Assembly: GCA_022616725.1 (NCBI GenBank)
Contig: JAKEEH010000149.1
Coordinates: 4,664-68,663, forward strand
Origin: Limisphaerales bacterium
GTDB lineage: Bacteria; Verrucomicrobiota; Verrucomicrobiia; Limisphaerales; JAKEEH01
Direction: 5' to 3'
Length of the DNA: 64,000 nt
In this document: positions 33,229 through 50,883 of the stretch, piece after piece
How positions within the stretch are numbered: position 1 is the first letter of the stretch
Layout of the letters: each line of letters opens with the position of its first letter
Notes under the pieces: model-generated
What the model was told of the DNA's origin: nothing
Databases searched by the model: none
Seen by the model: the letters and a program-made list of their open reading frames with translations, nothing else
Translations under genes and position numbers: made by a program

Positions 33229-34043
33229 GATTCCATCCTCAGTGGTGGTTAACTCTGCCCTGCCTGCTTGGGATGGCCTGGGCCGGCGAGCGCGCGTGGA
33301 CGAGGTCGCATCGCGCCGGCCTCTGCAACGCCGAATACGAACCACCTCCCGCCGGCATGGTATTCGTGGCAGCCGGCGAGTTCTGGATGGGCAGCGACGA
33401 CGCGAGCGCCGAGCCGGACGAACGACCGCTCCGAAGAGTCTTCGTGCCCGCTTTCTACATCGACAAGTTCGAGGTCACCAACCGTCGCTACAAAGAATTC
33501 AAGAGGAACCATCAATATCCGCCGGGCGAAGATGATTTGCCGGTTACTTTCGTCTTCAAACACGAAGCGGAAGAGTTCTGCCGCTGGGCCGGCAAACGAC
33601 TGCCGACCAGCGCCGAGTGGGAGAAAGCTGCACGCGGCACGGGTGGCCAGCACTACCCCTGGGGCGATAAATTTCAAGCGCGCTGCGCGAACATTTCCTG
33701 GGCGGCCCAGGGCGATGGGATCAACGCCGTCAAACGCAAGCCGCCAGCCAGTGCGAGCGGCAAGCTTCCGCCCGGGAGTTTGCCATTGGGCGTCAGCCCA
33801 TATGGCTGCCACGATATGGCGGGCAATGTCTGGGAATGGGTAAGTGACATTTGGTTTGACCGAAACATTCTCGGTTTCAAACAAGCCACCGAAGGCCGCG
33901 GAATCCTCCGCGGCGGCGCTTACAATTACAGTCCGCTCCAGGCGCGAACGTCGTATCAGGGATTCGAGGCGCTCGGCGCAACTTGTCACGACGTGGGATT
34001 TCGCTGCGCCATGACCGCGATTCCAAAACGGATGCGGCGTTGA
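33225..34043 (+). CDS. FGE-sulfatase (SUMF1/EgtB/PvdO) domain protein
   Basis: ATGA overlap with the upstream gene. GEFWMGSDD...ERPLRRVFVPAFYIDKFEVTNRRYKEF, LPTSAEWEKAARG, GNVWEWVSD, RGGAYNY...GFRCA. The CxxxxC catalytic pair of bona fide formylglycine-generating enzymes is not evident. Confidence 0.85.
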   Translation: MRFHPQWWLTLPCLLGMAWAGERAWTRSHRAGLCNAEYEPPPAGMVFVAAGEFWMGSDDASAEPDERPLRRVFVPAFYIDKFEVTNRRYKEFKRNHQYPPGEDDLPVTFVFKHEAEEFCRWAGKRLPTSAEWEKAARGTGGQHYPWGDKFQARCANISWAAQGDGINAVKRKPPASASGKLPPGSLPLGVSPYGCHDMAGNVWEWVSDIWFDRNILGFKQATEGRGILRGGAYNYSPLQARTSYQGFEALGATCHDVGFRCAMTAIPKRMRR

Positions 34044-34127
34044 ATTTCACGGAATGGCGGAGTTTTTGAGCTTTGATTGGAGCGGGTGAAGGTGGTAAGC
34101 AGGGATGGCAGCCCGTAGGCCGTTTTG

Positions 34128-37022
34128 ATGAACTCTCGCCAGCCAAAAGCCGAAGTCGAACGACCGGAGTCTTCCGGGAAAGCGGGGCTCGATATCACCG
34201 AACCGCTTCCGCGACAGAATCAGGATTTCAAGACGCGCCTTATTGAAGCCAGCCAGGATTGCATTAAGGTGCTCGATCTGGATGGCCGCCTGCTTTCGAT
34301 GAACGCCGGGGGGATGAAGCTGCTGGAAATCTGCGATTTCGAACCGCTGCGCGGCACCCGATGGGCTGATTTTTGGCACGGCGAAGATGACGCAGCGTGC
34401 GAAGCAGCCCTCGTAACGGCGCGGCGTGGAGACGTAGGGCGCTTCGTCGGTTTCTTTCCGACGAAGCAGACCCGCAAACCGCTCTGGTTCGATGTCGTGG
34501 TCAGCGCGATCCTTGGCGCCGACGGCAAGCCGGAGAAGTTGCTCGCGGTCTTGCGCGATGTTACAGAGTGGAAGCGGTCGCAAGAGCTGCTCGGCGCCAT
34601 CATAGAGGGCACCTCCGGCGTCACCGGCACCGCTTTCTTCAGGTCGCTCGTGCAACATCTCGCGAGTGGTTTGCACGTCCGCTGGGCCTTCGTGGCCGAG
34701 TGTCTCCCCAATCGCCGAGCCCGGTCACTCGCTTTTTGGGAGGACGGTGCTTTCGGTGTCGATTTCGATTACGATCTAGCCGGCACGCCCTGCATGGAAG
34801 TCGCCAAAGGCAGGACGTGCCACGTCCCCGACCGGCTGGCGGAGCTTTTTCCCGAAGACAAAGGCATGATCGCAATGGGCACGGTCAGCTACCTTGGTGT
34901 GCCTCTGCTCAATTCCGAGAAACGGATCATCGGGCACCTCGTTGTTTTCGACGACAAGCCCATGCCCCGTGACGCGCTGATGCTCTCCGTCATGGAGACG
35001 TTCGCGGCCCGTGCCGGTGCCGAGTTGGAACGCCAGCAGGCCGAGGGGGAGCTGCGCCAGCTCACGACCGAAATGGAAGCAGTCCTCAATGTCAACCGCG
35101 CCGTCGGTCAGCACCTCGACCGGGACGAACTCTTCGGCGCGCTGGCGTACTGCCTGCGCCGGGTAATCCATCATGACCGTTTTGGCATTGAATTGCCCAT
35201 CGAAGGCGACCGCCTGCAAGGGCACTTGCTCACGCCCAGTGGCGCCGGCGCGCAGCCGACCCGCGTCAAGGTGCTCCCGCGGAAGGGCACGGCCTGCAAT
35301 TGGGTGCTGGAGAACAAGCAATGGCTCATCTCAGCCGCGCGCGACGAACTGCGCGAACGCTTTCCCCTGACGGTTGAAGTGATGAGCCACGAAGGCATGG
35401 AATCGCTGGCTGCGATGCCTCTGGCGACGGGCGATCGCGTCCGCGGCGTCCTGTACTTTATGGCAGCGGCGCGCGGCGCCTATACGCAGGTGCGGCGCGG
35501 GTTGGTCGAGCAAGTCGCGGCGGCCGTGGCGGCCGCTCTGGACAACTGTCTGGCTCACGAAGAACTGCGGCAACAGTCCAAACAGGCCCTGGCCGAAAGC
35601 GAAGAACGCTTTCGTGATCTCTTCGACGAGGCCCCGATTGCCTACGTGCATGAAGGCCTCGATACCCGTTTCATTCGCGCCAACCACACCGCGATGCGCA
35701 TTCTGGGCATTAAGCCCGAAGAGATCGCCGGCACCTATGGGAAGTCCTTTGTTCCCGATACCCCAGAAGCCCAGCGCCGCGTGCGCGAAGCCCTGGAGTC
35801 CATCGGGAAAGGCACGGATACCCGCGGCGTGGTCCTCGAATTGCGGCGTAAAGATAACGGCAAACCCATTTGGATTCAGTGGTGGTCCAGGCCGGACCCC
35901 AGCGGCACATATACCCGCACGATGTTCATCGACATCACCGATCGCGTGCTCATGGAGCAGGAGAAAGCTCGCCTCGAAGCCCAGAACACCTATCTCCAGG
36001 AAGAAATCCGGACCGAACACAATTTCGATGAAATCGTCGGCAACAGCCCGTCCCTGCTCGGAGTCCTTCGCCAGGTCGATCAGGTCGCGCCCACCGATTC
36101 GACCGTGCTCATCCTCGGCGAAACCGGAACAGGCAAGGAATTGATCGCCCGAGCGATTCACGACCGGAGTCCCCGCAAACGCCGCCCACTGGTCAAGGTG
36201 AACTGCGGGGCCATTAGCGCGGGCCTCGTCGAGAGTGAGTTGTTTGGGCACGTCAAAGGCGCGTTTACCGGCGCGCTGACCCAGCGTGAGGGCCGCTTTA
36301 AGCTCGCCGATGGCGGGACGATTTTCTTGGATGAAGTCGCCGAACTGCCGCTCGACACCCAGGTGAAGCTCCTGCGTGTTTTGCAGGAGCAGGAGTTCGA
36401 GCCCGTAGGCAGCAGCGAGACGGTCCGCGTCAGCGTGCGTGTCATCGCCGCCACGAACCGCGACCTCCGCGCCGCCGTCGGCCAGGGAAAATTTCGTAGC
36501 GACCTCTACTACCGTCTCAGCGTCTTTCCTCTCCACAACCCACCGCTGCGTGACCGCTCCGGCGACGTGCCGCTCCTGGTAATGTTCTTTCTCCAGCGCT
36601 TCGCCAGAAAGCTGGGCCGCCCCGTCAAATACATTTCCGAACAGACCATGGCCCGTCTCACCGCCTATGGCTGGCCTGGCAACATCCGCGAACTGCAGAA
36701 TGTCATCGAGCGTGCCGTCGTCCTCTCGACCGGGTCCGTTCTCAACCTGGGTGATGACTTCCAGATTACCGATCACCCCCCGGCGACCCTTGATCACTCC
36801 TTAGTAATCACGGATCACTCTTCGGCGAATACTCCTCGGCACGCGCCCCCGGGTGACTCCCTCCGGGACGTCGAGCGACACCATATCGAGTCGATTCTCA
36901 AGGAAACCAACTGGATGATCGAAGGCGAGCGGGGCGCCGCTAAAATCTTGAACTTGCACCCTAGCACCTTGCGCAGCCGCATGCAAAAACTCGGCATCCG
37001 ACGCCCGCCGAAGCCCGTTTGA
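34128..37022 (+). CDS. Sigma-54-dependent transcriptional activator (PAS-GAF-GAF-PAS-AAA+-Fis HTH)
   Basis: About 964 aa. AAA+ core: VLILGETGTGKELIARAIH, ESELFGHVKGAFTGA (GAFTGA loop), RVIAATNRDL, WPGNIRELQNVIERA. C-terminal HTH: AAKILNLHPSTLRSRMQKLGI. Confidence 0.9.
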   Translation: MNSRQPKAEVERPESSGKAGLDITEPLPRQNQDFKTRLIEASQDCIKVLDLDGRLLSMNAGGMKLLEICDFEPLRGTRWADFWHGEDDAACEAALVTARRGDVGRFVGFFPTKQTRKPLWFDVVVSAILGADGKPEKLLAVLRDVTEWKRSQELLGAIIEGTSGVTGTAFFRSLVQHLASGLHVRWAFVAECLPNRRARSLAFWEDGAFGVDFDYDLAGTPCMEVAKGRTCHVPDRLAELFPEDKGMIAMGTVSYLGVPLLNSEKRIIGHLVVFDDKPMPRDALMLSVMETFAARAGAELERQQAEGELRQLTTEMEAVLNVNRAVGQHLDRDELFGALAYCLRRVIHHDRFGIELPIEGDRLQGHLLTPSGAGAQPTRVKVLPRKGTACNWVLENKQWLISAARDELRERFPLTVEVMSHEGMESLAAMPLATGDRVRGVLYFMAAARGAYTQVRRGLVEQVAAAVAAALDNCLAHEELRQQSKQALAESEERFRDLFDEAPIAYVHEGLDTRFIRANHTAMRILGIKPEEIAGTYGKSFVPDTPEAQRRVREALESIGKGTDTRGVVLELRRKDNGKPIWIQWWSRPDPSGTYTRTMFIDITDRVLMEQEKARLEAQNTYLQEEIRTEHNFDEIVGNSPSLLGVLRQVDQVAPTDSTVLILGETGTGKELIARAIHDRSPRKRRPLVKVNCGAISAGLVESELFGHVKGAFTGALTQREGRFKLADGGTIFLDEVAELPLDTQVKLLRVLQEQEFEPVGSSETVRVSVRVIAATNRDLRAAVGQGKFRSDLYYRLSVFPLHNPPLRDRSGDVPLLVMFFLQRFARKLGRPVKYISEQTMARLTAYGWPGNIRELQNVIERAVVLSTGSVLNLGDDFQITDHPPATLDHSLVITDHSSANTPRHAPPGDSLRDVERHHIESILKETNWMIEGERGAAKILNLHPSTLRSRMQKLGIRRPPKPV

Positions 37023-38431: not shown

Positions 38432-39052
38432 ATGAGCACGCCGCCATTCCAGATTCGCCGCGCGACAATCGATGATCTGCCGCATCTCAGCGCGATGTGG
38501 AGGGCGGAGAATCTGCCGGTGGAGGACCTGGAGAAGCGGTTCAAGGAGTTTCAGGTGGCCGAAGCCAGCGGCGGGGAGATCATCGGGGCCATCGGGCTGC
38601 AGATTGCCGGGCACGAAGGGCGGTTGCACAGCGAAGTGTTTGCCCACCCGGAGCAGTCGGACATGCTGCGGCAGACGCTGTGGGAACGGGCGCAGGTGCT
38701 GGCCGGCAATCACGGGCTGGTGCGGATGTGGACGCAGTTGAACGCGCCGTTCTGGCATATGAACGGGTTCGCGGTCGCCACTGGCGAGGCGCTGTCGAAG
38801 CTGCCACCGGTGTTTGGCGCGAATCCGGAACCGTGGCGTTTCGTGCAGTTGCGGGACGAGGCCGTGTCGGCCATTTCGCTGGACAAGGAGTTCGCGATGT
38901 TTCGTGAAGCGGAGAAGGAGCGGACGGAGAAGATTTTTCGCCAGGCTCGGGTGCTGAAGATGATCGCGGCGGTGATTGCGGCGGGGGTGCTGGTGCTGGT
39001 GCTGGTGTGGGCCATTTCGTTTTTCCGCCTGCAGCAAGGATTGCGGCGCTGA
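38432..39052 (+). CDS. GNAT-family N-acetyltransferase with C-terminal membrane anchor
   Basis: Start at ATG 38432. IRRATIDDLPHLSAMW...GEIIGAIGLQIAGHEGRLHSEVF...GLVRMW... is GNAT-like. The C-terminus has a TM helix AAVIAAGVLVLVLVWAISFF. Confidence 0.7.
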   Translation: MSTPPFQIRRATIDDLPHLSAMWRAENLPVEDLEKRFKEFQVAEASGGEIIGAIGLQIAGHEGRLHSEVFAHPEQSDMLRQTLWERAQVLAGNHGLVRMWTQLNAPFWHMNGFAVATGEALSKLPPVFGANPEPWRFVQLRDEAVSAISLDKEFAMFREAEKERTEKIFRQARVLKMIAAVIAAGVLVLVLVWAISFFRLQQGLRR

Positions 39053-39056
39053 GTTT

Positions 39057-39545
39057 ATGGCGTCGGAACGTGTCAGCGCCGGGTTGGTGATGTATCGGCG
39101 GCGGAAAGGAGCGCTGGAAATTCTTTTGGCGCATCCCGGCGGACCGTACTTTGCGCGCAAAGACGAAGGACATTGGTCGATCCCGAAGGGCGAGATCGAA
39201 CCGGGGGAGGATCCGCTTCGCACGGCGATTCGGGAGTTTGAGGAGGAGGTTGGGATTGCGGTGGATCCGGCGAGTGAATTTATCGATCTCGGTTCGATCC
39301 GGCAAAAGGGTGGAAAGGTTGTTCACGCGTGGGGTGTGGAGGGCGATTGCCCGGACGGGCACTGCATCAAGAGCAATCACTTTTCGGTCGAATGGCCGCC
39401 GGGATCGGGAAAATTTCAGCAGTTTCCGGAAGTGGATCAGGCAGGATTTTTTACGCTTCCGGAGGCGAAAAAGAAGGTCAAAGCGACGCAAATCCCGCTG
39501 CTGGAGCGATTGGCGAGCGCGATTGGCGATGGCGGCGATGGCTGA
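39057..39545 (+). CDS. NUDIX hydrolase
   Basis: Start at ATG 39057. The Nudix box is GEIEPGEDPLRTAIREFEEEVGI (Gx5Ex7REUxEExGU). Confidence 0.85.
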   Translation: MASERVSAGLVMYRRRKGALEILLAHPGGPYFARKDEGHWSIPKGEIEPGEDPLRTAIREFEEEVGIAVDPASEFIDLGSIRQKGGKVVHAWGVEGDCPDGHCIKSNHFSVEWPPGSGKFQQFPEVDQAGFFTLPEAKKKVKATQIPLLERLASAIGDGGDG

Positions 39546-39552
39546 ATGCGGC

Positions 39553-39963
39553 TCAGTCCTGCGTCCAGAAGTCGATCACGAAGACGTCGGCGAGGACGGG
39601 GCCGACGAGTTTGCCGAACTCCTTGTGGTCCGGATGGACGAGGTAGGCGTCGCGATCTTTGTCGCTGTTGAAGGTGAGAATGAAACCGTGGGTAAAGCCT
39701 TTGTCGTGTTTTTCCGGGCTGACGTTGGTGCCCCACTGGTAATCTTTGATTTCCGTGATTTTCTTCTTCAAGCCGCGGAAGGCGTCTTCGACCTGTTTGA
39801 TCTGTTCCTTTGTCGCGGTGTCCTTGAATTTAAATGAGACGACGTGGAGCAACTTGCCCTTGCCCGCGCTCTTGGCGTCTTTGTCTTTCTCTTTTCCTTC
39901 GGCGGCGGGAAGGGTCAGGCAAGCGGATAAGGTGATGGCGATGAGAAGCGCGATGGTTTTCAT
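39553..39963 (-). CDS. Secreted Dabb (stress-responsive alpha/beta barrel) domain protein
   Basis: Start at the Met of MKTIALLIAITLSACLTLPAAEG. LLHVVSFKFKDTATKEQIKQVEDAF..L...I.EIKDYQWGTNVSPE...GFTHGFILTFNSDKDRDAYLVHPDHKEF is the Dabb signature. Confidence 0.8.
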   Translation of the reverse strand: MKTIALLIAITLSACLTLPAAEGKEKDKDAKSAGKGKLLHVVSFKFKDTATKEQIKQVEDAFRGLKKKITEIKDYQWGTNVSPEKHDKGFTHGFILTFNSDKDRDAYLVHPDHKEFGKLVGPVLADVFVIDFWTQD

Positions 39964-40120
39964 GATGGGACGGAGGGTAGCGCCGATGGCGGAAAGGTCA
40001 ATGCGGGGAAGGGCTGTCAAGGCCGTCCTGATCTCCGAACTCCGGTGGCCGCTGGGTTGCTGGTCAATAGCAAAGCGCCAGGGGACAGGCGCACCGCATG
40101 ACGCAAGCGCCGAGGAGCGC

Positions 40121-42850
40121 TCACAAATTCTCTCGCGCTTTGGCGGTTGCGATGTTCCGCAGCTTCAGAGAATCCGCGAAGCTGAGCGCCTGGAAGAACA
40201 GTGGATAGCCGAAGAGGCGATGGTGGAGATCCTTCAGCGTGCGAGAGGGTGGAAGCTGGGTAAGGCCGATGGTGATGTTCTCGCGGGTCACCTTGAGCGG
40301 GTAGCAACCGTGATTCTCGGCGAATCCGGGCGGCAGAATCGGGAGGAGGCGAGCGACTTCGGCCGCGTCCCAGGATTCGGCGAGGGGAACATAACAGATT
40401 TCGAGGAAGGTTTGGTGCAGTTGTTCCTCGGAAACGCGTTTGTGGAGGAGCAACCATTGAGGGAGCGGGTCCGCAACCACAGAACGCATCGTCTGTAAGT
40501 TGGGGGCGTCCTCCACTCTGATGACGTTTTTGCCGACAAGGCAGTCGAGCAGCACCTGCTCGGGATCGAGTTCGACGCCGGCATTGCGGGCGGCCGCTTC
40601 GAGTTTGCCGGGCAACTCCGCAACAAAAGTGACCTGCGCACCGAGCTTGCGCTGGAGCCAGTCGGCCATGTCGGGATGCGGCGGAGTGGCGGTGACAACG
40701 GCATCCGGAGCGATGGGCATCATGCGGTGAAGCCACCAAAAGGACGGGCCGATTTTGTAATAGAATTCCTGGTGAAGGTGAAGGCTGCCCGGCAGTGCGG
40801 GTCTGCAGCTCAAAGCGTCGGCCCAGACTTCGCGCGCCCTGGGCTCGGGCAGAGCCCCCAAATCGACGAGGACCTCGGGGAGACTGCGGTGGCTGGCGTG
40901 CTGGAGGCTGAGAGCTTCGACGAAGGAGCGGGAGTCGAGGTTGGCGGCCTGGCGAAACATTTCAGTTGATGCCGCCAGCCGAGTGACGGGCAGAAGCAGC
41001 CGCGGAAATGCTCGATCACGGGCGTAAGCAATGTTGGATGGCAACGCCAGGAAGGGCTCGATGGGCGCGCCAAGCTGCTGCGCGAGCCGCTGCAACAGAT
41101 CTGTGCCAGCCGGTTCGCGGAAGGCGACGCTGATTTTGTCGTGACGCTGCGACACGGGCAGCGCCTCAATGGCGACGGATTGGGCTTCGGGAAAGCGTTG
41201 CAGGAAAGATTGAAATACCTCGTAGGGGCTGACGTGGCGCACGGGCAGACCGGAGTGACGCGCCCAAATTTCTGTGAATTGCTTCTCCTGCAGCAGCCCC
41301 ATGCGCAAAAGGTTGAGGGGCGCGGAACCGGGCTTGCGGAGCGCCTGGAAAATCTGCTCGCGCGTGGCGAGGCCCTGTTCGATGAGCAGGTCTTCGATGC
41401 TCTTGCGGTATTCAGCCAGTTCGGCTTCGCCAGGAAAGACGTGCGCGGTTTTCACCCAGACAATGGGCTTGCCGAACCATTTGTGCGCGAGGTAGGTCCG
41501 GGTGGCGCGCATGGTGGCGGTGAAATTGATGAAGTTGTTGACAATCACGCGGGGGATGGAGAAGCACGCCTGCTTGAAGTTATAGATGGTGTAAACGCTG
41601 ATGAATTTCTGAATCGCACGATAGGCGAGCAGCCAGGTGTCGATGATCGCGATCTTCCAGAGAATCGAATCGGCCGTGAAAACCGGCGCGATAAAAAGGT
41701 GCGCCGACCATGGCGTCTTCTGGAACGCATACTGGAACAGCACGTAAGCGAGGGTGATGTAGCCGATGATGTTGATCAGGTGGGTCAGCGGTGCGCGACG
41801 GTCGCGCACGAGTGTGTAGCGCATCGGCAAGGTCCCAGCCCAGCCGGTTTGCTCCCACGTCTGAAAGGAAATGCCCAGAATCCAGCGGGACCGCTGGCGG
41901 ACGGCGGCCTTGAAGGTGTTGGGAAAATTCTCGCGGATCGCGATAACTTCGGTGATCGTCTCCGGCTTGCCGAGCGTGTCGTCCTTCCGCTTGCGCCGGA
42001 CAATGCGCTGGATGGGCACGCTGATCATTCCAGCGCGCAGGCCGGCGCGTTTGACGCGGATGCCGACTTCGTAATCCTCTGTGAGGTTGCCAATGTGGAA
42101 TGGATCTCCGCCGTTGCGGGCGATCAGCGCTTCGACCGTAGGGCGCGAGAAAACCGTGCCAACACCCGCCGACGGAACAACGCCACCCATGGTTTCGCGT
42201 ACGAACAGGTCTTTGGTGTGCAATTCGGCAAAGTCATCAACATAGGTATTCCCGGTCCAGTATTTCAGTGGGGGCAGTTCGAGGGCGAAAACCGGGATCT
42301 GTCCCATGTCGTAGAGCCGAGGCACGAAATAGTTGTAAACTTTCAGCACGAGCGGATGCATCACGTCCTCGGCGTCCTGGATGGCAATGAGCGTGTATTC
42401 GCGGACACCTGGCACTTCGTTGAGACGCATGGCGCGGTAAAGCCAGTTGAGGCAATCGGCCTTACTGGTGGGGCCGGGATGGGGAACGACGACTTTGTGG
42501 ACGCGGGGATGAACGGCGCAGATCTTGTCAACGCATTTGATTGTTTCCGGGTCGTTGGGATAAACGCCGATAAAGATGTCGTACTTCTCATAGAGAAGAA
42601 CACGGGCGGCGTATTCGGCCATTTTATTGACGATACCGCCTTCCTGCCAGGCCGGAACAAACATCGCGAGCCATTGTTCCGGAGCCAGTTGCAATTGTTT
42701 GAGTGTGACAGGCGGCGTCTTGCGCTGGCGCAGCAAGTAAACCAGGAATTGCGAGTCAAAGAAGAGGTCGTCGAGGCCGCTGATAAGGAAACCGACGACA
42801 GTGATGCAGGCGAGGATCTGAAAAATATTCTCAACGATATCCATCACCAA
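40121..42850 (-). CDS. NfrB-like family-2 glycosyltransferase (EPS synthase) with three C-terminal MshEN/T2SSE_N-like repeats
   Basis: 909 aa. It is collinear with my recollection of E. coli NfrB: ISGLDDLFFD, FVPAWQEGGIVNKM, FIGVYPNDPET, HPGPTSKADCLNW, IQDAEDVMHP, YVDDFAELHTKD, PSAGVGTVFSR, LTEDYEVGIRV, AVRQRSRWILGI. The C-terminal 400 aa form three repeats of about 120 aa of the T2SS-E N-terminal type. Confidence 0.85.
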   Translation of the reverse strand: MVMDIVENIFQILACITVVGFLISGLDDLFFDSQFLVYLLRQRKTPPVTLKQLQLAPEQWLAMFVPAWQEGGIVNKMAEYAARVLLYEKYDIFIGVYPNDPETIKCVDKICAVHPRVHKVVVPHPGPTSKADCLNWLYRAMRLNEVPGVREYTLIAIQDAEDVMHPLVLKVYNYFVPRLYDMGQIPVFALELPPLKYWTGNTYVDDFAELHTKDLFVRETMGGVVPSAGVGTVFSRPTVEALIARNGGDPFHIGNLTEDYEVGIRVKRAGLRAGMISVPIQRIVRRKRKDDTLGKPETITEVIAIRENFPNTFKAAVRQRSRWILGISFQTWEQTGWAGTLPMRYTLVRDRRAPLTHLINIIGYITLAYVLFQYAFQKTPWSAHLFIAPVFTADSILWKIAIIDTWLLAYRAIQKFISVYTIYNFKQACFSIPRVIVNNFINFTATMRATRTYLAHKWFGKPIVWVKTAHVFPGEAELAEYRKSIEDLLIEQGLATREQIFQALRKPGSAPLNLLRMGLLQEKQFTEIWARHSGLPVRHVSPYEVFQSFLQRFPEAQSVAIEALPVSQRHDKISVAFREPAGTDLLQRLAQQLGAPIEPFLALPSNIAYARDRAFPRLLLPVTRLAASTEMFRQAANLDSRSFVEALSLQHASHRSLPEVLVDLGALPEPRAREVWADALSCRPALPGSLHLHQEFYYKIGPSFWWLHRMMPIAPDAVVTATPPHPDMADWLQRKLGAQVTFVAELPGKLEAAARNAGVELDPEQVLLDCLVGKNVIRVEDAPNLQTMRSVVADPLPQWLLLHKRVSEEQLHQTFLEICYVPLAESWDAAEVARLLPILPPGFAENHGCYPLKVTRENITIGLTQLPPSRTLKDLHHRLFGYPLFFQALSFADSLKLRNIATAKARENL

Positions 42851-44853
42851 CGAATTCCAACCGACAGGCCGACACGAAAGTCATCGTAGTTGCTTGACGC
42901 GTCGCCGCGATTGTCAAGGGCGTCGCGCTCAAAATAGAATCCATTCAGCCATTCGGCGCGCAAAACAACTTCCCACCGGCTCACCTTTGGCAGCACTGCC
43001 GGCGTCCAGAGCAAGCGCACACCGGGGCCTACCTCGATGAAATTGTCGTAGAAGTTTCCGCGGACATCCCAGGCAAGGTTCTCGACGGCGTAGGCATCGA
43101 TCGCCGTGCGCGGTCCCAATTGCCACAGCCGGAAGCCCTGATGGGCCTGGCCGTAACCGATCCAACTCGAATAGCGATGGTAATAGGAGAAGTCGGCGCC
43201 GGCATCGACGAACCAGTCGCCGCGCCAAAACATGCTGTTGGTGTTGCTGCCGCGCCAGCGGTGAGTTGCGCTGGCATCGGCCGGCGGAATGCCCCCTGCC
43301 GTCGCCACGGTCTCCTGGGGCCGGCGCAGAATGGTTCCGGGTCCCCACGATTTGAAGCCGTAGATTCCCGCCTGGTAATCCAGTGCCCAATCGCCGTTTT
43401 CGCGGCGGTCTAGGAAATCTTTGTTGCCGCCACCTTGCCCGTAAATGAACAGATATTCCCCGGGGACAAGTTGTGCCCGCATGCCTCCATAAAAGCCGAT
43501 GAAGTTGTCTGTAATAATGGTGCTGCGCCGGCCGGCGCCGGACCGCGTGTCAACCGAAAATCTAAATTCGGCGTACGGCTGGAGCCATCGGGCTTCCGGG
43601 ATGTAGTAGCCGTGGCGAGCGAATCCGGAGCCAATCAGTGTTCCGTACCGGCCTTGATAATCGCCCGAGAGGTACGCTTCGCCCCAAAAAAATTTATCAA
43701 AATTCACAATTTCGGGCGAAGCAAGTCGGCGTTCTGCTTCGGCGGCGAGAAACGTGTCGGGATGCGCGCGCTGAAGCTCCTTAAGGACCCGCGACGCTTC
43801 ACTCCAGCGATGTTGTTGCATTAGAAGGTCGGCGTGCAGCAACGCGAGCTCTGGTTTGGACGGATGCTGTTGCGCAACTTTGTCGAAGCGCTCGAGAGCG
43901 AGTTGAGTTTGACCGAGAGCGAGCCAGGCGTACAGCCGTTGCAACTCCATGGCCGGCGACAAAGGCTCCTGTCGTTCCAGTTCGGCGATGGCCTCGACCA
44001 CCTCCCGGTGTTTGCTTTGCCGGGCAAGAACATAGACGCGTTCTTCTCGAGATGGCGGAGGCGCCTTTTCGGCGAGCCGGCGGGCGGCTTCGGCAGCGGC
44101 GGCCGTTCCTGGATGCTCGCTTTCGACTTTGTGCCAGAGTTGCTCGGCGGTCTGAAGTTGGCCGAGCCGCGCGTAGAGATCGGCGCGAACCAACGCCAGG
44201 TCGGGCGCGCGCGGGTCGCGCTGTTCAAGTCGGTTGGCGTATTCGAGCGCGGCCGCATATCGGTTCAAACTCACCAGCGAGTAGAGGCGCTGCATTTCCA
44301 TGCCCCACGAGAGTTCGCCCGCGCTTTCCAGTTTCTCGACCTCACGGACAACCTCTTCGTGCTTAAGATCGCGCGCGAGCTGGTAAACGTGCTCTTCGGC
44401 GGTCTGGCGGTCAGCCCGCATACTCTCTTCGCGCAGCCGCGCCAGGGCGTCGCGCGCGGCGGCTGCCATGTCGGCATTTGTGGAGCTTTCGAGTGCGGCA
44501 AAGGTTTTCCGCGCATCTTCGGCGCGTTGCAGATTTAAATAGATTAGCGCCAGTTTGAAGTGCGCCGCCTCGTTCTGCGGCTGCGCCTGGTGAACAGATT
44601 CCAGCACGGTCGCTGCTTCAGCGTAACGGCGCAGATCAGCCAGTACACTTGCATAGTCGATGGCGGCGCTGTGATCCGCTGGCGCCTGGGCGAGATATCT
44701 TTTGAACTGTTCGGCTGCCTGGTCGAACTGTTTGCGCTCGTACAACTCATAAGCGTGCGCCTTTAGGGCCAGCACTTCAGGCGAGGGATCGGCAGCCAAG
44801 GCGAGAGCACCCAGGATTTGAGCGAGGATCATCCCGATGAAGGTCCGTCTCAT
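42844..44853 (-). CDS. NfrA/PgaA-like outer-membrane protein: N-terminal TPR array plus C-terminal beta-barrel
   Basis: 669 aa with a signal peptide. There are about 8 TPR-like helical pairs over residues 30-380. An alternating-hydrophobic beta region follows, ending ...YDDFRVGLSVGIRW (aromatic C-terminus typical of OMPs). 7-nt overlap with the synthase start. Confidence 0.7.
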   Translation of the reverse strand: MRRTFIGMILAQILGALALAADPSPEVLALKAHAYELYERKQFDQAAEQFKRYLAQAPADHSAAIDYASVLADLRRYAEAATVLESVHQAQPQNEAAHFKLALIYLNLQRAEDARKTFAALESSTNADMAAAARDALARLREESMRADRQTAEEHVYQLARDLKHEEVVREVEKLESAGELSWGMEMQRLYSLVSLNRYAAALEYANRLEQRDPRAPDLALVRADLYARLGQLQTAEQLWHKVESEHPGTAAAAEAARRLAEKAPPPSREERVYVLARQSKHREVVEAIAELERQEPLSPAMELQRLYAWLALGQTQLALERFDKVAQQHPSKPELALLHADLLMQQHRWSEASRVLKELQRAHPDTFLAAEAERRLASPEIVNFDKFFWGEAYLSGDYQGRYGTLIGSGFARHGYYIPEARWLQPYAEFRFSVDTRSGAGRRSTIITDNFIGFYGGMRAQLVPGEYLFIYGQGGGNKDFLDRRENGDWALDYQAGIYGFKSWGPGTILRRPQETVATAGGIPPADASATHRWRGSNTNSMFWRGDWFVDAGADFSYYHRYSSWIGYGQAHQGFRLWQLGPRTAIDAYAVENLAWDVRGNFYDNFIEVGPGVRLLWTPAVLPKVSRWEVVLRAEWLNGFYFERDALDNRGDASSNYDDFRVGLSVGIRW

Positions 44854-46454
44854 GGGGTGGGGGTGACAAGCTCGATTAGATTGTAATCACCATTTTGGCG
44901 CTCCAAGGTTCGCTGTCCCGAAGCCGCGCTGCGCTCCGTTTCCTGGGCGACAAGCCTTCCGGCGCGATCAAAGGATCTGCGGTGGACAATAACGTTTTGC
45001 AGTTCGAGGGTCTTGCGGGCGCCGCCCGTGAGCAGGATCGCACCCGGGACGGACACGATATTGTCGAGTTCGGCCAGATCCAGGAAGTGCAGGTTGTAGG
45101 TTTGGAGCAAGTCGATCAGAGCGATGATTTTCTCAAGTGGCTGGTAGCAATGAACGTAACTCCCGGCCACAACGCCCCGGAGCCCGGCCAGGAAATCGGT
45201 CATTTCGCCAATCCCCGCGAAAGAATTGCTCTCCGAGTTTAGCGCGTAGCCCGCGTTCTCGGGAACGATCAGGCGTCCGTAGCGATCAGCGCTCAGCGCG
45301 CTCGTGACGTAACTTTCTCGAAATGTGGCGTCGGAAAGTTGCACGCGCTCGACCGCAGTCGAAAAAACGTCCGCAATCGCGGTGTACGCATGGCGCGACG
45401 CCGCATAGCCGGGCGTTTGCCAGGCGAGTGGAAGCAACTCGTGCCGGAACATCTGCTGGAGGGCTCGATGCAGTCGTTCGCGGTGCTGATCTATGCTGTC
45501 GTTGGCCAACGGGCGGTCCAACTGCGTGTCCCAGAACTCGATACGCCCGTCATCAAACACGGTCCCTTTCATCACAAGCCGGGCGCCGCGCCGCTGTGCA
45601 TAACGCAGCCCATCGACCAACTCAGGGTTGTCCGCCAGCGTCTCAACGGTGTCGGACTCGCGATCAAAAAACAATGGCGTGGTGCTGACCGCGTAAGGGA
45701 TACGGCGCGAGTAAAGATAGTCGGCGATACGGCGAAAATGAGCGTGATCGCTGCGGGCATGATAGTCTTCAACGCGAAGGAGTAGCCGCGACGGCGGAAT
45801 GTCCTTGACATCATAAAAGTCCAGGAGCAGATCGCTGAAGATGTAGCTCAACGGTCCCCAGAGCGGCACGGTAGCGACGAACGTGGCGTTGCTCAATTGC
45901 CAAACCAAAGGCCGTTGATGCACCCGTTCCTGTACCGTCATGAGAATTTTCGCGGCGCTGTTCGAACTCACGCGCGCCGGAATCCAGGGATAGACGGGTA
46001 CGCGCCATGTTTTCCCGCGATAGACCACGTTGGTCAGCGACTTCTCGGTGAACCGCGTGAAAAACTCGAAATGGCCTTTGAAAGGGGGAGATTCCTGCAA
46101 TTGATCGGCGCCGAAGCCGACCCACAACAGCGGTTTTTGCAAATGTGTCAGCGCATGCAGGACGTTCGTAGGCAGTCGCGACTGCACCTGAGGACAAAAG
46201 ACGACAACGTAATCGGCTGAGGCGATCTCCGCCGGTTCGGCGTTGGACGCGGCGACGCTTTCGAGCCGGGTCGCGACGCGGCGTAACTGCAGGCGCAGAA
46301 TCTCCAGCCCTTCGCTCATCGAATACTTCGCGCGCGTGTCGGCATAAATGAGCAATGTCCTGGCGTCAGGCCCTCCACCCGCAGCAAGACGATTTTGCGC
46401 GCGCGCTAGGGCCAGGGCGGAAAGGATCGCGACAAAGATTATAATCGGTCTCAT
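44850..46454 (-). CDS. DUF2334-like (polysaccharide deacetylase-fold) periplasmic protein
   Basis: Track ORF 44850..46568. The start is chosen at ATG 46454 (MRPIIIFVAILSALALARAQ signal peptide), giving an ATGA overlap with the upstream stop. LLLRVEDYHARSDHAHFRRIADYLYSRRIPYAVSTTPLF resembles the DUF2334 core (YdaL-like). Confidence 0.55.
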   Translation of the reverse strand: MRPIIIFVAILSALALARAQNRLAAGGGPDARTLLIYADTRAKYSMSEGLEILRLQLRRVATRLESVAASNAEPAEIASADYVVVFCPQVQSRLPTNVLHALTHLQKPLLWVGFGADQLQESPPFKGHFEFFTRFTEKSLTNVVYRGKTWRVPVYPWIPARVSSNSAAKILMTVQERVHQRPLVWQLSNATFVATVPLWGPLSYIFSDLLLDFYDVKDIPPSRLLLRVEDYHARSDHAHFRRIADYLYSRRIPYAVSTTPLFFDRESDTVETLADNPELVDGLRYAQRRGARLVMKGTVFDDGRIEFWDTQLDRPLANDSIDQHRERLHRALQQMFRHELLPLAWQTPGYAASRHAYTAIADVFSTAVERVQLSDATFRESYVTSALSADRYGRLIVPENAGYALNSESNSFAGIGEMTDFLAGLRGVVAGSYVHCYQPLEKIIALIDLLQTYNLHFLDLAELDNIVSVPGAILLTGGARKTLELQNVIVHRRSFDRAGRLVAQETERSAASGQRTLERQNGDYNLIELVTPTP

Positions 46455-48226
46455 GCAGCAGTTTTGAACGGTGTCTCTCTTTGAGCGGACCGGCGCCGGC
46501 GGTCCCGGTCCCATTCCAAGGTCACGCGCCCGAGGATGACGCCGAGGACCACGACGCCGCCGAACCAAACCAGAAACCGGTTCAGTCGTCGTGATCGCTC
46601 TCGGCGGGCGGCAATTTTCCTGAGATGAGCTTGCGTTTGCGCCACGTCCAGCCCGCGTGGAATGATCTCCTTGACGGTCTGCGCGAACGATTGCACCGCC
46701 GGTTTTCGGGATTCATAGGATGCGAGGCGCCCGAGGTGATCCATCGCGGCCATATTCCCGTGCAAGCGTCCCCGCGCAGCTTCGTGAATAACTAACGCTT
46801 TGACTGTAGCTGGATCAAGATTCGTCCATCCTCCGGCGGTAACGAGCCATTCATTTGTGCCCCATGGAGCCGGCAGCATCTGAATCAAGGCCAGCGAAGG
46901 CTCGAAATCCGAAATGTCATCGCGCCGACCCTGAATGCGAACGGTTCCGCGGCTCATCTGTTGAATCAGGAGCCGGGCGCCATTGGGCGTGGCATAACGC
47001 CACGTGCTTACCGGCGCCAGGACGAGGGCCGAACGGTCGTGCAGGCAGCGCTGAAAGGTAGCATTGTCATCTTGTTCCCGGCTCGGATCAAACGCGCATA
47101 CTTGCGGCCAAAGCACCGGAGAGGACGGCAACCGCCGGCCCAGGTGCATGGAGATGTCGAACACAAGCCGCAGTTCCGAACGGCTCGGGGGTGTCGGAAG
47201 AACAAAGGCAATCCGCCGCAAAAAGCTGTCGCGTACGAGCAGAGTGTCGAGGTGTTCCAGACCTGTGATGTCCAAGGGTCGCGCGATAGTCTCTAATGAA
47301 GATCCGCTAAGTACTGTCGCAATCGGACCGCCCCGCGGCAAAGGATCGGCTCTGGCGCGAAAGGTAAACATCAGCGGGTCGATGCCTTCGGTCGGCGGAA
47401 TTGGCAATTTCGCGCTGCCGCCGTCGCCGTTCTCGTGCGTCAAAGGCACGTCACCCACTCGCATCGCGCCAAGAAACACTTCGAGCGCGCCATTTGTCAC
47501 GTTCGTGGAGTGGAAAAAGCGGAGGGTTAATTCACCCCGCTCGAGGCGGTGACTCGGCGGGAGCCGCCATCCGAAACGGGCCACCGGCTCTTGTCCAACA
47601 TCAAAGTCTCCCCAGCGAAGTTGGGCAAAAGTCGTGCGAGCAGAGCTCGGGCGGGACAGTGCTTCCGTCTCGGGGCGGATTGAAGGCACGTCAACGATCT
47701 CAGCAGGACTTGGCGGCAGAGCGTCCAGCGCCGGCCGGCTACCAAGAGTGACGACCGCTTTCTCAAGCCCCGCGTCGTCACCCCCCGTAACCAAAATCCA
47801 GCGGTGCCGGTTTCCGGCGTCGCCCACAATAAATTCCGCGAGCAAACCTCGACCAGGGCCGAGCGCGTCAAGGTTTGTTTTGATTTCCAACGCTACTGGC
47901 AATGTGCCCAATTCATCGACCCGGCCGACGATTACTACGTTATGGTCCTCGACGGCAGGCCAATTCGATATTTCCATGAGATGACAGTTGGATTCAGCAA
48001 ACGCCGACAGTTGTCCGAGCCGCGCCCCCAGGATCGCAACCCCGCGGAGGTGAACTTCCCTGGGCACGGAGGGAAGCAGGATTGCCGCGTGCACGCCCGA
48101 CATCTCGGCGAAACTGGCCGGAAACCGACGCAGTTCGGGAAAGAGCGGAAGTCTTTTCGTTTCGGCGGCCGCCGCCTGCATCGCGCAGGCGCAAACTAAA
48201 AGCAACACACGTACAGCCTTCGACAT
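46451..48226 (-). CDS. BcsB-like periplasmic protein with C-terminal TM anchor (assignment tentative)
   Basis: 591 aa. It has a signal peptide, a large soluble region and a single C-terminal TM helix (FLVWFGGVVVLGVILGRV) followed by a basic tail, the topology of cellulose-synthase subunit B/YdaN-like proteins. It is the first gene of the four-gene EPS operon. The call rests on architecture and context rather than motifs. Confidence 0.45.
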   Translation of the reverse strand: MSKAVRVLLLVCACAMQAAAAETKRLPLFPELRRFPASFAEMSGVHAAILLPSVPREVHLRGVAILGARLGQLSAFAESNCHLMEISNWPAVEDHNVVIVGRVDELGTLPVALEIKTNLDALGPGRGLLAEFIVGDAGNRHRWILVTGGDDAGLEKAVVTLGSRPALDALPPSPAEIVDVPSIRPETEALSRPSSARTTFAQLRWGDFDVGQEPVARFGWRLPPSHRLERGELTLRFFHSTNVTNGALEVFLGAMRVGDVPLTHENGDGGSAKLPIPPTEGIDPLMFTFRARADPLPRGGPIATVLSGSSLETIARPLDITGLEHLDTLLVRDSFLRRIAFVLPTPPSRSELRLVFDISMHLGRRLPSSPVLWPQVCAFDPSREQDDNATFQRCLHDRSALVLAPVSTWRYATPNGARLLIQQMSRGTVRIQGRRDDISDFEPSLALIQMLPAPWGTNEWLVTAGGWTNLDPATVKALVIHEAARGRLHGNMAAMDHLGRLASYESRKPAVQSFAQTVKEIIPRGLDVAQTQAHLRKIAARRERSRRLNRFLVWFGGVVVLGVILGRVTLEWDRDRRRRSAQRETPFKTAA

Positions 48227-48360: not shown

Positions 48361-50883
48361 TTACTTCCTTTTGGCGGAGCCGCCGGCATTGTCAGCAGGT
48401 TGATCGTTCCCGCGTTTCCTTGGCACGAAGACCGAAACGCTGGCTGTCGCCTTGTTGCCGGAGGCATCGACGCAGAGGACGGTGATCGTATAAAGCCTGC
48501 CTTCGCCTCGTGGAGAGCGCTCTGCGCGGACAAGACCTGTCAGGCTGCCAGTGATTGCGGTATCCGGAGCGGTGTTGTCGCCGGGACCGGTTTCCGGCTC
48601 GTTGCTGGTGATCGATACGATGCGGCTGACCGGAGCCGGGTCGCAGTTGTCGTTCGCGGTCACCGATACGACCACTGGGACCATGTCGCGTGTGACGTTT
48701 TCAATTACTTCGGGACTGACTGAGATCGACGCGATTTCGGGCGCCGTGCGGTCAACCACGGTCAAGGTGGTTGTGCAGGCGCCAGTGTTGCCCGAGAGAT
48801 CAGTGACCGTGAGGGTGATCAGATGAACGCCCACGCCAAGAAGCGTTCCGGGGGCGGGAGTCTGTTTTACATCCACATCTCCACAGTTATCGGCGGCTGC
48901 GGCGCGCGTTCTCAGGTCCGGCACTTGTGCCCGGCATTCTGTCTTGACTTCCAGCACAACCGGCTCAGGACAGACGACCGTCGGCGGAGTCGCGTCAACG
49001 ACGCGAACCAACGTGTCGCAACGGCTCTCGTTTCCTGCCGCATCCTTCACGGTAAATGTAACGGTGTGCGAACCGAGCGGGAGTGATGTGCCGGGCAATG
49101 GCGATTGGCTCTTGGTCAACGCCGTGGCGGGCGTGCAATTATCAGTGGCAGCCACTTGCGGTAATAGATCCGGCAGGACACCAAGGCAATCATCGCCTGC
49201 GACGACTCTGACAGGTTCAGGGCAATGGCCCACCGGTGCCGTCGCGTCCACGACGGTGAAGGTGACGGTGCATGACCCGACGTTTCCGGACGTGTCGGTC
49301 GCCGTAACCGTGACCAAATGCGTGCCCAAACCAACGAGCGAGCCCGCGACGGGCGATTGCGCTTTGAGAAGGCCAGTGGACGACGTGCAGTCGTCCATCG
49401 CGACAACTGAGGCAGTGAAATCGGGGACGACCGCGCCGCAATCGGGCCCGGCGACGACACTTCGCTCGGCCGGACAGACAACCCTCGGCGCGGTTGTATC
49501 GCGCACGACCACGACGACCGAGTCTTCTGCCGTTGCACCACTCGGGTCCGTCACTGTCAAGGTGACGGTGTGCGTGCCGAGACCGAGATTGACCGAGAGC
49601 GCAGCGCCGGAACCCAGAGAAACTCCCCCTTCACTCCAGGCAAACGTCAAGGTATCGCCGTCGGGGTCGCTCGATGCCGTCCCGTCGAGGCGGGTCGCCG
49701 TGCCGCACTCCACGGTGAGATCGGAACCGGCGTTCGCGACCGGAGGTTGATTTCCGGACGACGGCGTCAAAATGTACCAGGCGCTCGTGCCATTGAGGGT
49801 GCCGAGCCCGGCAATCTGACCCGCATCATTGATGAATCGCGCCGTGAAGAGACGCCATCCGGAGTTCGTCGGCAAGAGGCTGTTCAGGTCAACCATGACC
49901 CCGTCCTTCCAAAGAAAGGGAACCAGAACACCGAGGGCGTTTTCTGACCGCCCCACCACATGGCCCCAATTGTTTATCGCGGCGCCTTCGGAGTAGTCAC
50001 CGCCGAGGGTGCCAAGATCGGTCACGACGCCATTGCTGACGAGGAATGCGTGATAGGCCGTGTCGCCCGCCGTCCAACCATCGGCGAGAACCTGGCCGGC
50101 GTTGTTGATCGCGAAAGCCGAGCTTTCGCTGCCGCCGAGACTGAGCTTTTGCATTGCGCCATTGCGATAAACGAACCCGAATTGCGCGCCGTTTTCATCG
50201 AGCGAATCGCCGACAACTTCTCCGGTGTCGTTCAGCGCGTTGGCCATGCTCATGCCGCCGCCGAGGGTTCCAAGATCCGTCATCGAACCGTTGCGATACA
50301 GGAACGCGCGCGGCTCGAAGAATTCATTGTAAGAATCGCCGGTCACGTCGCCATTGGCGTTCATCGCGGCGGTGAAACTATAGCCGCTGCCCAGGGACCC
50401 AAGGTCAGTCATCTGGCCATAGCGATGCTGGAAAGAGCGGATGCCGCCGTCGCTGGTCTCGGAATCGCCAGCGACATCGCGAGCGCCGTTGACCGCAACG
50501 GCCGTGCTGTAAAAGCCGCCCAATGTCCCCAGGTCCGTCACCACGCCGCCGCTGTACAGAAATGCGTGGGCGGGCATGCCCGCCAGCGTGGACTCACCGA
50601 CGACATCCCCGAACTCGTTCAGCGCGTTGCCCAACGCGGTGGGGCCGCCGAGAGTCGGGATGTCCGTCATGACGCCGCGGCTGAAAAGGAACGCGTGCTG
50701 CTGCCCGGTCGCCGTGCGGGAAAGTCCTGCCGCGTCACCGGCATGGTTGAGGGCGCGCACTTCTGTGGCCGGTCCGCCAAGGCTCGGCACACGAACAATC
50801 GTGCTCTGTCCAGCGGCGAAGTTGAACAGGGCCAGCAACATCAGGCTTGCACCCGCCAGCGGTGAGACGACGATCGGTTTCAT
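48361..50883 (-). CDS. Secreted HAF-repeat / PKD / HYR-domain surface protein
   Basis: Start at the Met of MKPIVVSPLAGASLMLLALF. Repeated ...HAFLY..G.MTDLGTLGG... units are the HAF family. ANAGSDLTVECG...DPDGDTLTFAWS is PKD-like. Four modules of about 85 aa with D.C.......Q.P..G..L.LG.H.VT.T.TD..GN...C fit HYR. Confidence 0.8.
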   Translation of the reverse strand: MKPIVVSPLAGASLMLLALFNFAAGQSTIVRVPSLGGPATEVRALNHAGDAAGLSRTATGQQHAFLFSRGVMTDIPTLGGPTALGNALNEFGDVVGESTLAGMPAHAFLYSGGVVTDLGTLGGFYSTAVAVNGARDVAGDSETSDGGIRSFQHRYGQMTDLGSLGSGYSFTAAMNANGDVTGDSYNEFFEPRAFLYRNGSMTDLGTLGGGMSMANALNDTGEVVGDSLDENGAQFGFVYRNGAMQKLSLGGSESSAFAINNAGQVLADGWTAGDTAYHAFLVSNGVVTDLGTLGGDYSEGAAINNWGHVVGRSENALGVLVPFLWKDGVMVDLNSLLPTNSGWRLFTARFINDAGQIAGLGTLNGTSAWYILTPSSGNQPPVANAGSDLTVECGTATRLDGTASSDPDGDTLTFAWSEGGVSLGSGAALSVNLGLGTHTVTLTVTDPSGATAEDSVVVVVRDTTAPRVVCPAERSVVAGPDCGAVVPDFTASVVAMDDCTSSTGLLKAQSPVAGSLVGLGTHLVTVTATDTSGNVGSCTVTFTVVDATAPVGHCPEPVRVVAGDDCLGVLPDLLPQVAATDNCTPATALTKSQSPLPGTSLPLGSHTVTFTVKDAAGNESRCDTLVRVVDATPPTVVCPEPVVLEVKTECRAQVPDLRTRAAAADNCGDVDVKQTPAPGTLLGVGVHLITLTVTDLSGNTGACTTTLTVVDRTAPEIASISVSPEVIENVTRDMVPVVVSVTANDNCDPAPVSRIVSITSNEPETGPGDNTAPDTAITGSLTGLVRAERSPRGEGRLYTITVLCVDASGNKATASVSVFVPRKRGNDQPADNAGGSAKRK

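Follow-up and report, generated by a model that had tools for sequence, protein, structure and literature searches.

Synthase-dependent exopolysaccharide (EPS) systems are central to biofilm biology, and nearly all of those that have been studied are activated by cyclic di-GMP (c-di-GMP). The recently found Nfr-type synthase is part of a large modular family whose members swap both their periplasmic and their outer-membrane partners. In the Nfr system of Escherichia coli, the inner-membrane synthase NfrB, a family-2 glycosyltransferase (GT2), is accompanied by the periplasmic DUF4434 protein YbcH and by NfrA, an outer-membrane protein (OMP) that joins tetratricopeptide repeats (TPR) to a beta-barrel; c-di-GMP activates NfrB via its MshEN domain, with G491L being the most damaging mutation (PMC8669469). 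Here we describe a four-gene minus-strand operon from a Limisphaerales bacterium (contig JAKEEH010000149.1 of assembly GCA_022616725.1), contained in a 64-kb stretch of DNA that is called the window below. The operon is closest to Nfr in its synthase, to the Gram-positive Pss and Yda systems in its pair of BcsB-like and DUF2334 proteins, to the cellulose system Bcs in the architecture of its exporter, and to the pilus ATPase PilF in its triple MshEN-like array. The four genes are a real feature, conserved though uncharacterised, and probably encode an NfrB-type synthase-dependent EPS secretion system, one whose MshEN array would not bind c-di-GMP in the canonical manner. The aspect that stands out is the systematic replacement of contact residues throughout the triplicated array, along with the linkage of a response regulator to the operon in relatives.

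The BcsB-like and DUF2334 partners are the kinds of proteins found in the Gram-positive systems. Listeria PssA-E likewise has a non-cellulose GT2 and a BcsB ortholog, PssD (PMC4125290), and its polymer is based on ManNAc (PMC13492145). That said, PssC has been described as closest to IcaA/HmsR rather than to NfrB (PMC4125290), and it is by this description that we set it apart. Bacillus subtilis YdaJKLMN includes a protein of the DUF2334/YdaL type, YdaL being the family name that JGI gives to homologs of the window protein, while YdaM and YdaN are set beside the present locus by their description. Unlike the window operon, the Pss and Yda systems have no OMP, and in both the c-di-GMP receptor is a separate degenerate GGDEF protein (PssE or YdaK). 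The BcsA-BcsB-BcsC system shares with the window a BcsB-family partner with a C-terminal anchor and an exporter of TPR-barrel architecture. Its synthase differs, as the one described here is of the NfrB type, with few transmembrane helices and no PilZ domain.

The operon consists of four intact open reading frames (ORFs) that overlap in the manner of coupled genes, in an order reversed from that of E. coli Nfr. All coordinates refer to the whole window; relatives named L with a number are genomic loci, and P0001 is a database protein. Read in the direction of transcription, the minus-strand genes encode a BcsB-like periplasmic protein (46451..48226, 591 aa), a DUF2334 protein (44850..46454, 534 aa, its ATG lying within a longer TTG-initiated ORF at 44850-46568), an OMP made up of TPR and a beta-barrel and ending in ...GIRW (42844..44853, 669 aa), and the NfrB-like GT2 (40121..42844 from its ATG, or 40121..42850 from a TTG). 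An initial annotation of this DNA had proposed translational coupling across overlaps of 4, 4 and 7 nt. The two 4-nt overlaps, both of the ATGA type, hold at the BcsB-like/DUF2334 and DUF2334/OMP junctions, whereas the 7-nt overlap between the OMP and GT2 genes arises only with the TTG, two codons upstream of the ATG at 42844. When the GT2 gene is started at that ATG, its product is 907 aa long and the junction reads TGATG, a 1-nt overlap; this start agrees with P0001, an exact 907-aa match from a metagenome-assembled genome (MAG) labelled Verrucomicrobia subdivision 3, and with the starts of all homologs. Pfam searches recovered the expected families Glyco_tranf_2_3, MshEN, DUF2334 and BcsB in the four proteins, with NfrA_C alone going unmatched.

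The N-terminal part of the synthase (aa 1-472, 41429..42844, minus strand) matches two Pfam GT2 families that overlap, Glyco_tranf_2_3 (E 4e-32) and Glyco_trans_2_3. It comprises a transmembrane helix at the N-terminus, the family-2 glycosyltransferase domain and a set of hydrophobic helices at aa ~352-401. As had been suggested, this catalytic half is collinear with NfrB: BLASTP aligned the window GT2 to E. coli K-12 NfrB with 34% identity over 628 aa (E 3e-115), an alignment that takes in the first MshEN module. Junkermeier and Hengge introduced mutations into the processive-GT2 signatures of NfrB, DxD, TED and QxxRW (PMC8669469); the window protein has all of these intact, as DAED157, TED255 and QRSRW317. 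Against the NfrB equivalog model NF008411 (cutoff 1170 bits) the window GT2 scored 459.9 bits, below the threshold that E. coli NfrB passes with 1332.8. It exceeded the cutoff of the broader NfrB-type model NF011305 (PRK14716.1-3; 418 bits, cutoff 409) and fell slightly short of that of NF012033 (520.9 bits, cutoff 537), both being models of the broad PRK14716/PRK15489 family. Judged by these profiles, the protein is a member of the broad NfrB-type synthase family that lies outside the NfrB equivalog. With a processive GT2, a partner in the periplasm and a TPR/barrel exporter all encoded in one operon, the locus has the combination by which synthase-dependent EPS systems are recognised.

The C-terminal remainder of the synthase was proposed at the outset to consist of three MshEN-like repeats, and comparison of family profiles bears this out. 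We aligned 108 full-length GT2 homologs, split the C-terminus into three and compared the resulting part-profiles by hhalign. Module r1 (aa 478-624, 40973..41413) matched r2 (aa 625-767, 40544..40972) with 97.2% probability (E 3.5e-11) and r3 (aa 768-900 plus a short tail, 40124..40543) with 97.5% probability (E 6e-12), and r2 matched r3 with 90.7% probability (E 1e-6); all three are encoded on the minus strand. Pfam MshEN identifies r1, and r2 and r3 are assigned by their hhalign matches to it. Over the whole window GT2, MshEN (PF05157) scored 57.4 bits against a cutoff of 23.1 (E 1.5e-15, in two stretches). Sequence matches to r1 in the PDB were PilF 6f8l (the best), PilB 9g1w and MshE 5htl. 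When r2 and r3 were searched alone against 1.84 billion representative proteins, 31 matches were obtained, and those listed were proteins of ~890-900 aa from this GT2 family or short fragments, bar one weak match of 703 aa. Modules r2 and r3 are thus confined to this synthase subfamily. The closest counterpart of the array as a whole is found in Thermus thermophilus PilF, where three tandem MshEN/GSPII domains (GSPII-A, GSPII-B and GSPII-C) include two that bind c-di-GMP and at least one that does not, small deviations having cost GSPII-A its binding (PMC12002112). PilF, however, is an ATPase of type IV pili and bears its array at the N-terminus. In the window protein the modules occupy the C-terminal end of a glycosyltransferase, and none of the three conforms to the motif.

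The deviations fall on the residues that matter for ligand binding. MshE binds c-di-GMP by two 24-residue motifs, and a G11I mutation abolishes binding (PMC5013675). In r1, (R/K)-S-I-E-D and S-A-P stand where RLG would be. The first RLG has become (R/K)-S-I-E, with Glu484 (106 of 108 homologs) at the position of E. coli NfrB Gly491, and the second has become S507-A-P509, with Ser507 conserved in 106 and Pro509 in all 108. The second motif has also exchanged its closing Gln for His, Phe or Tyr and one Leu for an invariant Trp527. Modules r2 and r3 are likewise without RLG. E. coli NfrB has one complete module, and the window protein has three MshEN-like ones from which the c-di-GMP motif has been lost. 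A degenerate motif had been pointed out in the first repeat before; it is genuine and corresponds to the second 24-mer of r1. Among the NfrB-like proteins of 79 loci, which were collected in one scan of species-representative genomes and aligned by hidden Markov model (HMM), all other subtypes retain R(R/K)LG(D/E)LL, though several retain the first motif only and have PL or PR in the second where KLG is expected.

The same division appears with NF053729, a curated NCBIfam model of the c-di-GMP motif that has a cutoff of 38 bits. Four NfrB-like proteins of other subtypes all pass, namely E. coli NfrB (66.4 bits), L042 from Acidobacteriota (112.2), the two-module type L050 (100.3) and L067 from WOR-3 (69.8), and the four members of the three-module subfamily tested all fail: the window protein at 29.2 bits, L002 at 23.2, L011 at 25.1 and L084 at 31.5. 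Because the RLG/Q contacts are replaced throughout the subfamily and this model is failed, canonical c-di-GMP binding appears unlikely for the three-module subfamily as a whole. The doubt that the initial annotation had voiced about binding is well founded, and of its tripled built-in sensor the tripling stands, while every member tested falls short of the c-di-GMP motif model. The substituted residues are strongly conserved, which argues for a function that has been kept but is different. The subfamily would be a natural case in which c-di-GMP-binding residues have been exchanged for a different, equally conserved set alongside domain triplication. As an aside, a second match to NF053729 lies C-terminal to the complete MshEN module in E. 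coli NfrB (L001, aa ~630-745), L042 (623-674) and L050 (634-684). The E. coli NfrB tail also matches Pfam DUF4388, and the published NfrB mutations concern the first site only (PMC8669469).

To compare the surroundings of the synthase, the 79 loci were annotated with HMMs of three origins: the proteins of the window, NfrA and YbcH of E. coli, and epimerase and receiver genes of relatives. About 40 loci, all of them from MAGs, have the arrangement seen here (type A), with a BcsB-like gene, a DUF2334 gene, an OMP gene and a three-module GT2. They come mostly from Chthoniobacterales/Terrimicrobiaceae and Pedosphaerales-like Verrucomicrobiota, with a few binned as Methylomirabilota or Dongiaceae. 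Type B loci, from Proteobacteria, Acidobacteriota and Desulfobacterota, are arranged as in E. coli, with a one-module GT2 (sometimes preceded by an epimerase), an NfrA-type barrel and a DUF4434/YbcH protein; neither DUF4434/YbcH nor an NfrA-type barrel was found when the whole 64-kb window was searched by tblastn and HMM. Type C, in MAGs labelled Rickettsiales or proteobacterium, consists of an epimerase, an OMP of the present barrel family, a GT2 of ~935 aa with at least two modules and canonical motifs, a BcsB-like protein and a receiver; the Anaeromyxobacter loci L062 and L071 have only the two-module GT2 in common with it. In WOR-3 the GT2 is followed by an OMP, a DUF2334 protein and an epimerase (type D), and in Acidobacteriota the order is epimerase, GT2, OMP (type E). 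From this gene content, the NfrB-type family is modular, its synthases pairing with at least four accessory sets other than the one described here. The published NfrB survey was largely of Proteobacteria and does not report this architecture (PMC8669469).

Within the three-module subfamily the accessory genes are the rule. All three stand in order in 23 of the 26 three-module loci that have at least 7.5 kb of upstream sequence, the carriers being MAGs of Verrucomicrobiota type throughout, and the BcsB-like, DUF2334, OMP, GT2 order is also that of L002-L004 and L084. Variants do occur, as L007 and L033 are without the BcsB-like gene and L005 is without the DUF2334 and OMP genes. The survey therefore upholds the co-occurrence of DUF2334 and BcsB-like proteins with an NfrB-type GT2. 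The idea that the window locus merges two designs overstates how singular it is, since the same gene order is standard in the verrucomicrobial subfamily and a BcsB homolog next to nfrAB-wecB has already been noted in Achromobacter (PMC8669472). The three-module synthases of L009 and L010 (Methylomirabilota bins) and L033 (a Dongiaceae bin), all from soil MAGs, are 57-58% identical to that of the window, and these taxon labels point to mis-binning or to lateral transfer of the cassette.

Two further genes travel with the operon. A WecB-like Epimerase_2 gene, for a UDP-GlcNAc 2-epimerase, adjoins it in most relatives, and in dozens of them it overlaps or abuts the GT2 gene. Type A operons are usually followed by this epimerase and by a CheY-like, single-domain receiver of ~125 aa, while in the Pedosphaerales-like branch both genes precede the operon. 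In the type A receivers the acidic pair, the phospho-acceptor Asp, the Ser/Thr and the Lys are all preserved. One branch has the receiver gene downstream of the operon and another has it upstream in divergent orientation, which argues for a functional linkage. The epimerase linkage, together with the Nfr precedent, makes UDP-ManNAc the likeliest substrate; linkage to the epimerase WecB was also used to argue for UDP-ManNAc in Nfr itself (PMC8669469, PMC8669472). A separate observation concerns the type C receivers encoded after the BcsB-like gene in L043, L050, L051, L055 and L083, which have a Glu at the position of CheY Asp57 (T/S-E-L-Q-G) and may be phosphorylation-independent pseudo-receivers.

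The first gene of the operon encodes a protein with a signal peptide and a C-terminal membrane anchor at aa ~548-570, a hydrophobic segment that is present in all members of the BcsB-like family. Its match to Pfam BcsB (PF03170; 24.4 bits against a cutoff of 21, aa 23-268) is marginal for the single sequence. A profile of 15 family sequences matches the solved structures of E. coli BcsB (6yg8, E 8e-23) and Rhodobacter BcsB (4hg6, E 2.7e-10), so the original assignment stands. Unlike cellulose BcsB, the window protein is without the first domain, which is of the carbohydrate-binding type, and no remnant of that domain was found upstream of the gene.

The second protein was rightly assigned to DUF2334 (PF10096; 85.9 bits against a cutoff of 26, E 3.8e-24). 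Its signal peptide is followed by an N-terminal alpha/beta domain, a barrel of deacetylase fold at aa ~223-455 and, lastly, a C-terminal beta domain. No solved structure was matched when the PDB was searched by sequence and by profile. An AlphaFold2 model based on 42 homologs (pLDDT 91.8, pTM 0.90) had the EPS deacetylases Agd3 (E 8.8e-11) and PelA (E 1.1e-9) as its top Foldseek matches in the PDB, with further matches to the NDST1 deacetylase domain, CE4 enzymes and the CE4 pseudoenzyme BA3943. Agd3, PelA, NDST1, ArnD and PgdA were all matched at a Foldseek probability of 1.00, and the N-terminal domain resembles ThuA/glutamine-amidotransferase-like folds. By context, PelA, Agd3 and BA3943 are all periplasmic or extracellular partners in EPS pathways. 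Sequence identity to these proteins is no more than 10-12%, however, and the putative metal-binding His pair is absent here, which brings the window protein nearer to BA3943. Compared with stand-alone paralogs, HGxxH is replaced by KGTVF and PHY by PGY in the window, and the two His of these motifs are retained in 8 and 12, respectively, of the 42 operonic homologs. Because this His pair, matched by analogy to the CE4 metal site and by conservation in the paralogs, has been lost, most operonic DUF2334 copies, including that of the window, are probably non-catalytic pseudo-deacetylases. A literature search found no paper that pairs DUF2334 with BcsB or with an exopolysaccharide.

In several Chthoniobacterales-type loci a second DUF2334 gene stands by itself within a few kb of the operon (L012, 15513-17198; L025, 18256-19926; L032, 18262-19932; L004, 21121-22677; L040, 21595-22656). 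HGxxHQ and PHY are retained in the L012 and L025 copies, the two that were aligned, and such a stand-alone protein could be an active deacetylase that partners the pseudo-enzyme.

The third protein had been called an NfrA-like porin, a name that fits its architecture. A signal peptide is followed by a TPR superhelix at aa ~25-378 and then, at aa 389-668, by a beta-barrel with about 12 predicted strands; the AlphaFold2 model (pLDDT 83.1) has 12 beta elements. Membership in the NfrA family itself is not supported. Pfam gave many TPR matches and no barrel family; at an E-value of 1, neither NfrA_C (PF13283) nor any other barrel family was matched by 17 members of the OMP family, while PF13283 scores 227.6 bits on E. 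coli NfrA. A BLASTP comparison with NfrA was not significant, and a PDB profile search with the OMP family returned TPR matches only. Comparison of the barrel family with an NfrA barrel profile by hhalign gave 63% probability (E 7e-5), and the two barrels are possibly remote homologs. The Foldseek list for the OMP model consisted mostly of TPR proteins, the barrel fold not being classified separately, and the only PDB matches to span both TPR and barrel were those to E. coli BcsC (9b8h and 9b8a). The barrel of BcsC has 16 strands, against the ~12 predicted here.

Taken together, these features suggest a pathway in which the inner-membrane GT2 would polymerise a sugar nucleotide, most likely UDP-ManNAc by analogy to Nfr and from the gene linkage in relatives. 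The growing chain would be handed to the membrane-anchored BcsB-like partner in the periplasm and would then meet the DUF2334 protein, presumably as a binding or scaffold subunit whose catalysis has probably been lost, before exiting via the TPR-tethered outer-membrane barrel. The three cytoplasmic MshEN-like modules are expected to regulate the synthase, probably by some means other than canonical c-di-GMP binding. In complete relatives the likeliest input would be the phosphorylatable CheY-like response regulator encoded with the operon, and its linkage suggests an alternative route of control. Such a system would give a first handle on the matrix polymers made by the Verrucomicrobiota of soil and fresh water, an abundant group that has received little study. 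There is a more specific version of this proposal, which we regard as conceivable though rather unlikely, in which the MshEN array has been repurposed as a docking platform for the operon-linked CheY-like regulator or as a sensor of some other small ligand. If so, the invariant Ser-Ile-Glu-Asp, Ser-Ala-Pro and Trp527 would make up a new interface, and docking of the regulator would mean that a two-component system, and not c-di-GMP, controls an EPS synthase directly at the post-translational level.

Several observations weigh against the EPS secretion system proposed here, and some of them suggest other explanations for the locus. Neither a WecB-like epimerase nor a receiver domain was found by tblastn and HMM in the whole 64-kb window. 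The BcsB-like protein aligns solely to aa 167-733 of its L084 homolog (52% identity), so that a first domain of ~166 aa is missing, and the close relatives L007 and L033 have no BcsB-like gene of any kind. With about 12 predicted strands, the barrel is narrow for a polymer exporter, and a consensus scan of the 134 bp that precede the operon, upstream of 48226, gave no sigma-70-type promoter match. The putative catalytic residues of DUF2334 were assigned by analogy to CE4 enzymes and by paralog conservation, and the array may bind c-di-GMP in a non-canonical way. The reduction of the BcsB-like protein in the window and the loss of its gene in L007 and L033 mean that its role may be dispensable or that the locus may be drifting. 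One could go further and view the window locus as a degenerating or rewired remnant, stripped of its regulator, its epimerase and a portion of BcsB, from which no polymer is produced any longer. This would account for the N-terminal truncation relative to the 73%-identical L084, for the unrelated gene of a HAF/PKD/HYR protein at the position of the L084 response regulator, for the lack of epimerase and regulator in the 64 kb and for the missing DUF2334 His residues. It is nonetheless improbable, as none of the four ORFs is disrupted and their coupled-gene overlaps persist, the catalytic motifs of the GT2 are in place, and the truncated BcsB-like protein has a proper signal peptide, whether acquired or kept, in addition to its C-terminal anchor. 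Moreover, loss of the DUF2334 His residues is common to most of the family and not specific to this genome, and an epimerase could sit elsewhere in the genome, as wecB does in E. coli. The window copy is an atypical, partly reduced member of its subfamily.

The two other explanations accept an active synthase and dispute either its control or its product. A c-di-GMP-activated enzyme whose three modules act as a multiplied sensor and accommodate one dinucleotide or several in a relaxed form of the MshEN mode is quite unlikely in view of the motif data: the RLG and Q contacts are replaced in 108 of 108 homologs in both r1 motifs and absent from r2 and r3, Glu or Pro stands in place of the Gly whose mutation abolishes binding in MshE (G11I) and severely impairs NfrB (G491L), and NF053729 scores run from 23 to 31.5 bits against the cutoff of 38, compared with 66-112 in other subtypes. 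What keeps the idea alive is that r1 is a true MshEN homolog and retains the hydrophobic scaffold of both 24-mers, that this very domain mediates the activation of E. coli NfrB by c-di-GMP (PMC8669469), and that two of the three PilF domains bind the dinucleotide (PMC12002112), although in PilF small deviations were enough for GSPII-A to lose its binding. It is also very unlikely that the operon makes some other polymer, for example a cellulose-like or PNAG-like glucan, with the epimerase of the relatives serving another pathway. In favour of this reading, cellulose synthases are the best-known setting for BcsB partners, a partner with a deacetylase fold is reminiscent of PNAG and Pel systems, and the window itself has no epimerase. 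Yet the GT2 is of the NfrB family and not BcsA or PgaC, scoring 418-521 bits with NfrB-type NCBIfam models, and PgaC_IcaA is not among its matches (two relatives score 15.7-21.7 bits). In dozens of relatives, too, the epimerase and GT2 genes overlap or lie directly side by side, and Listeria provides a precedent for BcsB homologs as partners of a synthase that makes a ManNAc polymer (PMC4125290, PMC13492145).

Immediately upstream of the operon, at a distance of 134 bp and on the same strand, lies the gene of the large secreted HAF/PKD/HYR protein (48361-50883, minus strand), which has seven HAF repeats, a PKD/K319L-like domain and three HYR domains. The initial annotation had remarked on its position, and it does adjoin the operon, but it is not a conserved neighbour, since L084 has a divergent response-regulator gene there. 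It was rejected as a part of the system because relatives (L002-L004 and L084) carry other genes at this place. Insertion of the HAF/PKD/HYR gene may be connected with loss of the first BcsB-like domain. On the other side, a terminator-like hairpin from a consensus scan (40075..40092, minus strand) lies 29 nt past the GT2 stop and possibly marks the end of the operon; it is weak evidence, and the number of sites returned by the promoter and terminator scan of the region was not above that expected from shuffled sequence.

Directly downstream of the synthase is the gene of a secreted Dabb (stress-responsive alpha/beta barrel) protein (39553-40020, minus strand), and next after it comes a NUDIX hydrolase gene (38976-39545, plus strand). 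A NUDIX gene stands beside the epimerase in L002 too, and its presence in both may be a trace of shared synteny. Further along is a sigma-54-dependent activator of 965 aa (34125-37022, plus strand) with PAS, GAF, PAS, AAA+ and HTH_8 domains; it has no receiver domain, and no link between it and the operon was established. Genes for FGE-sulfatase proteins, which resemble the formylglycine-generating enzyme, occur near the operon both in the window (33207-34043, plus strand) and in L004 (3795-4487 and 20179-21108).

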